Position numbers: made by a program. A stretch of 64,000 bases of DNA from Escherichia coli O127:H6 str. E2348/69. Its GTDB lineage: Bacteria > Pseudomonadota > Gammaproteobacteria > Enterobacterales > Enterobacteriaceae. The stretch lies in NCBI RefSeq assembly GCF_000026545.1, contig NC_011601.1; one strand, given 5' to 3'. Below are positions 63,001 to 64,000 of this stretch, piece after piece (the first letter of the stretch is position 1; every line of letters begins with the position of its first letter).

Positions 63001-64000
63001 CATTGAAGAACCACAATGGGAAAACTATGACCGTGTGGTTATTGGCGCTTCTATTCGCTATGGTCACTACCATTCTGCGTTCCAGGAATTTGTCAAAAAG
63101 CATGCGACGCGGTTGAATTCGATGCCGAGTGCCTTTTACTCCGTAAATCTGGTGGCGCGTAAACCGGAGAAGCGTACTCCACAGACCAACAGCTACGCGC
63201 GGAAGTTTCTGATGAACTCGCAATGGCGTCCCGATCGCTGTGCCGTCATTGCCGGGGCGCTGCGTTACCCACGTTATCGCTGGTACGACCGTTTTATGAT
63301 CAAGCTGATTATGAAGATGTCAGGCGGTGAAACGGATACGCGCAAAGAAGTTGTCTATACCGATTGGGAGCAGGTGGCGAATTTCGCCCGAGAAATCGCC
63401 CATTTAACCGACAAACCGACGCTGAAATAAGCATAAAGAATAAAAAATGCGCGGTCAGAAAATTATTTTAAATTTCCTCTTGTCAGGCCGGAATAACTCC
63501 CTATAATGCGCCACCACTGACACGGAACAACGGCAAGCACGCCGCCGGGTCAGCGGGGTTCTCCTGAGAATCTCAACAGAGAAAAGCAAAAAAAATGCTT
63601 GACTCTGTAGCGGGAAAGCGTATTATGCACACCCCGCCCGCTGAGAAAAAGCGAAGCGGCACTGCTCTTTAACAATTTATCAGACAATCTGTGTGGGCAC
63701 TCGAAGATACGGATTCTTAACGTCGCAAGACGAAAAATGAATACCAAGTCTCAGGAGTGAACACGTAATTCATTACGAAGTTTAATTCTTTGAGCATCAA
63801 ACTTTTAAATTGAAGAGTTTGATCATGGCTCAGATTGAACGCTGGCGGCAGGCCTAACACATGCAAGTCGAACGGTAACAGGAAGCAGCTTGCTGCTTTG
63901 CTGACGAGTGGCGGACGGGTGAGTAATGTCTGGGAAACTGCCCGATGGAGGGGGATAACTACTGGAAACGGTAGCTAATACCGCATAACGTCGCAAGACC

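Follow-up and report, generated by a model that had tools for sequence, protein, structure and literature searches.

The 64,000-nt stretch of Escherichia coli O127:H6 str. E2348/69 analyzed here (NC_011601.1; hereafter the window) ends inside the 16S rRNA gene of the rrnA operon. The bases by which this gene start departs from the familiar K-12 sequence are, very probably, standing near-neutral alleles of helix 6 and helix 7 that are shuffled by gene conversion. Relative to K-12 rrsA, all three changes (C80, G89 and C137) preserve pairing, since 80:89 is C-G in the window sequence and 137:226 is C-G as well. The variants are real but ordinary, and we attach little biological weight to them.

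Results

Locus and leader of the 16S segment

The last 194 nt of the window had been described in an earlier note, made from the sequence alone, as a 16S rRNA 5' region, and this identification is correct. The segment matches Rfam RF00177 on the + strand with 124.8 bits (E = 3.4e-36, model positions 1-188), well above the curated gathering score of 50, and the 3' truncation of the match comes from the window end alone. Because the alignment starts at model position 1, window position 63807 is 16S position 1. All 194 nt also agree with the start of the 16S gene annotated 3' of hemG in E2348/69, a gene of 1542 nt that is followed in the record by tRNA-Ile, tRNA-Ala, 23S and 5S (i.e., a full rrn operon). 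The order trkH-hemG-rrsA is common to K-12 and E2348/69, and mobB lies 3' of the 5S gene in E2348/69. Given the upstream trkH-hemG flank, which is as in K-12, the operon is rrnA, the positional orthologue of K-12 rrnA. Both strings on which the earlier note was based are present in the window, GGAAGCAGCTTGCTGCTTTG at 63881-63900 and CTGCCCGATGG at 63938-63948. The features of the region are listed in Table 1.

Flanking single-copy DNA, not rRNA, placed the strain. More specifically, three O127:H6 / E2348/69 assemblies match the last 25 kb of the window at 100% identity, with the next record at 99.0%, and the first 50 kb correspond base for base to NZ_LT827011.1 4172443-4222442. Over the last 1.5 kb, 31 positions differ from K-12, 28 of them outside the 16S gene. 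The conclusion that the window is not from K-12 is therefore right, and it is firmer from the flanking DNA than from the rRNA. E2348/69 belongs to phylogroup B2 and is the prototype of EPEC (PMC4464170).

Table 1. Features of the rrnA region at the 3' end of the window (16S numbering for rrsA positions).
Feature	Window position	Strand	Basis or comparison
hemG coding sequence, single-copy	62885..63430	+	E2348/69 annotation, exact-match mapping to window
Putative UP element, A+T-rich sequence 5' of P1	63457..63478	+	direct reading
Putative rrnA P1 promoter (TTGTCA, 16 nt, TATAAT)	63480..63507	+	promoter scan, 11/12 matches
P1-P2 spacer segment	63571..63592	+	K-12 rrnG / E2348 rrnB version, not K-12 rrnA
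rrnA P2 promoter (TTGACT, 16 nt, TATTAT)	63599..63626	+	promoter scan, 10/12 matches
Putative boxA antitermination sequence in rrn leader	63663..63675	+	direct reading
First 194 nt of rrsA (16S rRNA, rrnA operon)	63807..64000	+	Rfam RF00177; cut by window end
Helix 6 (16S positions 61-106, V1 'spur' hairpin), CUUG loop at 83-86	63867..63912	+	
C80, 5' side of 80:89 pair	63886	+	A in K-12 rrsA/B/E/H, C in rrsC/D/G
G89, 3' side of 80:89 pair	63895	+	T in K-12 rrsA/B/E/H, G in rrsC/D/G
C137, pairs with G226 of helix 7	63943	+	T in 7/7 K-12 copies

The rrnA leader was compared with the other rrn leaders of K-12 and E2348/69. P1 and P2 are both strong sigma-70 promoter matches; P2 is conserved across the aligned leaders, and P1 is identical to the P1 of K-12 rrnA, rrnB and rrnC, as is the upstream sequence AGAAAATTATTTTAAATTTCCT. 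We take the function of P1, and the role of AGAAAATTATTTTAAATTTCCT as an UP element, from what is known of rrn P1 promoters and of the rrnB P1 UP element. Likewise, we take TGCTCTTTAACAA to be boxA from established knowledge of rrn antitermination; it is invariant in 12 aligned leaders save for one T-to-C change in E2348 rrnC. Between the two promoters, the spacer segment differs from K-12 rrnA by a cluster of about 10 differences in 22 positions, a pattern that suggests a gene-conversion tract between operons. Additionally, a 1-base deletion at about 63637 (a G in CACCCCGC-CCGCTGAG), just 3' of the rrnA P2 -10 element, is absent from the 11 other leaders and would make the leader hairpin 5' of boxA one pair shorter.

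Several observations were made elsewhere in the window. On the - strand at 1822-4637, between cyaY and lptM, lie two neighbouring hypothetical genes that encode 442 and 496 aa, a position at which K-12 presumably has no gene. They give weak DKNYY Pfam matches just under cut-off and no PADLOC defence-system match. Within a carbamate kinase / fdrA / cytosine permease cluster, an AllG-family gene is left as two pseudogene fragments (37311-40293), interrupted by an ISEc13 (IS4-like) transposase gene at 37668-39041. Finally, a REP-type element at 55758-55828 matches Rfam naRNA4 (RF02564) with 69.7 bits, above the gathering score.

Alleles of the seven rrs copies in K-12 and E2348/69

The first 194 nt of all seven MG1655 rrs genes were aligned with the window. 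The K-12 bases given in the earlier note (A80, T89 and T137) are indeed those of rrsA, rrsB, rrsE and rrsH, which read A80/T89/T93/T137. The remaining copies read differently: rrsG carries C80/G89 with C93, and rrsC and rrsD carry A79 C80/G89 T90 with C93. Three V1 types are thus found across the seven K-12 copies, and C80:G89 is present in three of the seven, though not in the orthologous rrsA. At position 137 all seven copies have T and none has C. The cis combination C80/G89/U93/C137 is found in none of the seven K-12 rrs copies, nor is the window's exact 20-mer, from which rrsG departs at position 93. The description of the variants as non-K-12 consequently stands for C137 and falls for C80 and G89, the bases that K-12 itself has in rrsC, rrsD and rrsG. 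Since K-12 16S is seven sequences, departure from the familiar rrsB is no evidence of non-K-12 origin. Over the full gene, E2348/69 rrsA and K-12 rrsA differ at 5 of 1542 positions (80, 89, 137, 204 and 1036).

All seven rrs copies of E2348/69 carry C80:G89, and they fall into two main V1 types of four and three copies. The G79/C90/U93 type is that of rrsA, rrsH, rrsB and rrsC, the last with an extra A76 that gives an A76-U93 pair; the A79/U90/C93 type is that of rrsE, rrsG and rrsD. C137 is confined to three of the seven copies, rrsA, rrsH and rrsC. A given allele is found at different operons in K-12 and in E2348/69, and this mosaic of rrs alleles, together with the rrnG-like rrnA spacer, fits gene conversion between operons. 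Concerted evolution through short-tract gene conversion among rrn operons has been reviewed, along with compensatory changes in the polymorphic segments (PMC6002687).

A rearrangement of the spacer tRNA genes was also seen among the E2348/69 operons: the rrnE spacer holds tRNA-Ile and tRNA-Ala and the rrnD spacer tRNA-Glu (L012:10161-10355, L037:10656-10731), the reverse of K-12, and the flanking genes are unchanged.

Pairing in helix 6 and helix 7

The Rfam consensus structure, RNAfold (positions 61-106) and RNAalifold all pair position 80 with position 89, and the three agree on a helix 6 stem of 76-82 with 87-93 closed by a CUUG loop, in which 80:89 lies near the tip. The A-to-C and T-to-G changes are accordingly the two sides of a single pair and keep it paired, as had been claimed: the pair is A-U in K-12 rrsA/B/E/H and C-G in the window, both Watson-Crick, i.e., a compensatory change. 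The five distinct helix 6 haplotypes of K-12 and E2348/69 have standard pairs in all cells of the comparison, and both sides change at three pairs (76:93, 79:90 and 80:89), compared with none when the 3' partners are slid. RNAfold returns one and the same helix 6 hairpin for every natural haplotype. For the artificial mutants, other folds are predicted when C80 or G89 is introduced alone, and the double mutant is predicted to regain the hairpin. The computed hairpin energy is -12.0 kcal/mol with C:G versus -9.8 with the A:U of K-12.

That the two changes in helix 6 came together by chance was considered and rejected. By rough arithmetic, a random second substitution would hit the partner position with the complementary base at about 1/193 x 1/3 = 0.002, and given this low probability the pairing of the two changes at 80:89 is not coincidental.

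For helix 7, the partner of position 137 lies 32 nt past the window end; in the full-length E2348/69 rrsA it is G226. Over positions 122-239, RNAalifold joins 137 (column 16) to 226 (column 105), the pair being represented as UG:4, CG:3 and UA:1. It is U·G in most K-12 copies, U-A in K-12 rrsC (A226) and C-G in E2348/69 rrsA, rrsH and rrsC. C137 thereby replaces the U137·G226 wobble with a C-G pair, an effect that had gone unremarked in the earlier note; the C-G form of helix 7 is predicted to be about 2 kcal/mol more stable than the wobble form.

Allele frequencies in E. coli

Haplotypes were counted in 5,426 complete E. coli genomes, which hold about 37,900 rrs copies of the stretch. The queries were 30-mers in which each possible 28-nt megablast seed covers the variable sites, so that only exact haplotypes are returned. 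Counts were tallied per copy and per genome with all operons pooled (Table 2), and they are lower bounds because any further SNP inside the seed drops a copy.

Table 2. Haplotype counts in complete E. coli genomes (lower bounds).
Haplotype	Copies	Genomes
Window V1 type (G79 C80 / G89 C90 / U93)	6,002	1,817
K-12 rrsB type (A80 / U89)	12,976	3,433
rrsG type (C80 / G89 / C93)	5,681	2,586
rrsC/D type (A79 C80 / G89 U90 / C93)	7,889	3,579
C137	2,253 (6%)	755 (14%)
Mismatched C80/U89	9	6
Mismatched A80/G89	27	9

C80:G89 is present in at least 19,572 of the approximately 37,900 copies (at least 52%) and A80:U89 in 34%, with other V1 haplotypes making up about 14%. The familiar A80:U89 of rrsB is thus a minority form in E. 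coli. The V1 type of the window together with C137 in cis (i.e., the exact 91-nt haplotype) was found in 651 records. No paper containing the exact V1 string came up when the full text of the literature was searched.

Copies in which only one of the two sites is changed are rare, 36 mismatched versus 18,978 paired on a shared background (0.2%). This rarity fits selection for pairing, and tight linkage over the 9-nt spacing could also yield it without any selection, so that the population counts alone are no proof of such selection. Among the mismatched assemblies, three carry A80/G89 in 7/7 copies and one carries C80/U89 in 4; these are either genuine unpaired variants or polishing artefacts.

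Alleles in other genera and direction of change

Species-representative genomes were scanned with the variable sites left free, and 20 stretches were obtained. The main E. coli representative is absent from this set, which serves as an outgroup sample, and because the rest of the 68-mer had to be identical, the scan samples close relatives only. In all matches from other genera the pair is C80:G89 (Enterobacter cloacae, two Salmonella enterica subspecies, Citrobacter, Cedecea, Klebsiella indica and Kosakonia), and the only A80:T89 in the scan is on a single 545-bp contaminant contig. The 137:226 pair is U-A, U·G or C-G among these enterobacterial genera. In Citrobacter amalonaticus S646 and Kosakonia sp. 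S29 the 68-mer is identical to that of the window, C137 included.

As the majority state in E. coli and the sole state in the other genera sampled, C80:G89 is probably the ancestral enterobacterial state, and the A80:U89 of K-12 rrsA/B/E/H is probably derived. The direction of change taken by the earlier note, with the K-12 state as the reference, is then probably to be reversed. The further suggestion that the 16S variants may help to place the strain is weak: the 91-nt haplotype recurs across hundreds of records, and the finding of the same 68-mer in Citrobacter and Kosakonia makes the rRNA haplotype a poor strain marker. The alleles of V1 and of helix 7 are shared too broadly, even between genera, for strain placement.

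The scan also returned enterobacterial 16S sequence on contigs of 500 and 545 bp in two actinobacterial assemblies, Nesterenkonia haasae and Nocardioides sediminis, the 545-bp one with the K-12-type A80:T89. Both contigs are almost certainly contamination.

Discussion

E. coli 16S V1 heterogeneity, pair-preserving rRNA substitutions and concerted rrn evolution are already established, and the start of E2348/69 rrsA can be read within this frame. Helix 6 is a spur directed away from the ribosome body, poorly conserved in sequence and tolerant of insertions (PMC10269663). C80:G89 is a Watson-Crick pair near the tip of this solvent-exposed V1 spur, and C137 turns the U137·G226 wobble of helix 7 into C-G. 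The alleles are widespread and, on this reading, old, with C80:G89 probably ancestral and A80:U89 a derived pair that happens to be the one at four K-12 operons. Selection for paired helices would let only paired combinations persist. RecA-dependent gene conversion among the seven rrn operons, along with recombination between strains, would shift short tracts of these alleles, as the mosaic suggests, and each genome would in this way come to hold its own allele mosaic, with no special function implied.

Other explanations were weighed against this one. An assembly or polishing artefact would have rrnA display bases of other copies through the mixing of reads from seven near-identical rrn operons, and rRNA repeats are a classic site of consensus errors; the few assemblies with mismatched A80/G89 in 7/7 copies may be such errors. 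However, three O127:H6/E2348/69 assemblies, independent of one another, agree fully with the window over 25 kb spanning the 16S stretch, the exact 91-nt haplotype is shared by 651 records, and the seven copies in E2348/69 differ from one another and show internal consistency, with pairing kept by every variant. We therefore give an artefact next to no probability. It is very unlikely, although not to the same degree, that the C137 segment is a short 16S tract that came in through horizontal transfer and recombination from a different genus of enterobacteria, for example Citrobacter. The identical 68-mer of C. amalonaticus S646 and Kosakonia sp. S29, the minority status of C137 in E. coli and the documented occurrence of short-tract interspecies 16S recombination (PMC6002687) would suit such an origin. 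Nevertheless, in a gene as highly conserved as this one, identity over 68 nt says little in favor of transfer. The flanks hold no accompanying foreign substitutions, and the whole of rrsA departs from K-12 rrsA at only 5 of 1542 positions. C137 is a lone U-to-C transition from a wobble to a Watson-Crick pair, which easily arises independently; since this one transition suffices, transfer is not needed.

A functional explanation would hold that expression differs between operons with different V1 or helix 7 alleles and that their specialised ribosomes translate different mRNA sets, as reported for K-12 rrnH. E. coli rrn operons are indeed differentially expressed, and 16S of the rrnH type affects stress-response expression (reviewed in PMC9586635). 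Single SNPs in variable regions can reduce 16S performance, as tested by Bose and Moore in V3-V4, i.e., at other sites than those considered here (PMC10269663), and the E2348/69 operons are split four to three between the two V1 types. Against this, the rrnH effect, the one such case described in the literature, is that of K-12 rrsH, in which the distinguishing substitutions lie at 1002-1038, outside helix 6 and helix 7, the helix 6 spur faces away from the ribosome body and accommodates even large insertions, and nothing in the sequence hints at function. Because the placement of these alleles among operons changes from strain to strain, an operon-specific role is disfavoured, and we regard specialised ribosomes as very unlikely here. 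The narrower proposal that the two V1 classes, and the restriction of C137 to rrnA, rrnH and rrnC, reflect selection for two functionally distinct ribosome populations in phylogroup B2 E. coli, rather than drift and conversion, appears extremely unlikely. Near-neutral alleles redistributed among operons by gene conversion remain the explanation that we favor.

The closest counterparts of the window sequence are found in K-12 itself, where the V1 regions of rrsG, rrsC and rrsD hold the same C80:G89 pair of helix 6. rrsG differs from the window in having C93 (G76-C93) in place of U93 (G76·U93) and also in G131 and T183, rrsC and rrsD differ in an additional A79:U90, and C137 is missing from all three. 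The promoter spacer of K-12 rrnG is in turn the version found in the window's rrnA. Beyond K-12, the exact 194-nt sequence occurs in many genomes of other E. coli, among them NU14, 536, F11, EC958 and ST95 and ST131 isolates, many of which we take to be extraintestinal strains of phylogroup B2. C137 is carried by 536 and F11, and the V1 type is present in 5 copies of EC958. These genomes differ from E2348/69 in the number of copies that bear each allele, which ranges from 1 to 7 per genome.

Compensatory base changes in rRNA helices underlie comparative models of rRNA structure. As in textbook rRNA covariation, both sides of a pair change here and every haplotype has a standard pair, and the series U-A, U·G and C-G at 137:226 corresponds to the textbook path via a wobble intermediate. 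The classic cases lie between distant taxa, whereas the covariation described here occurs inside a single species, and even inside a single genome. The case also resembles the concerted evolution of rrn operons (PMC6002687), with conversion read here from the pattern: E2348/69 likewise displays an allele mosaic among operons and strains and a spacer tract common to non-orthologous operons.
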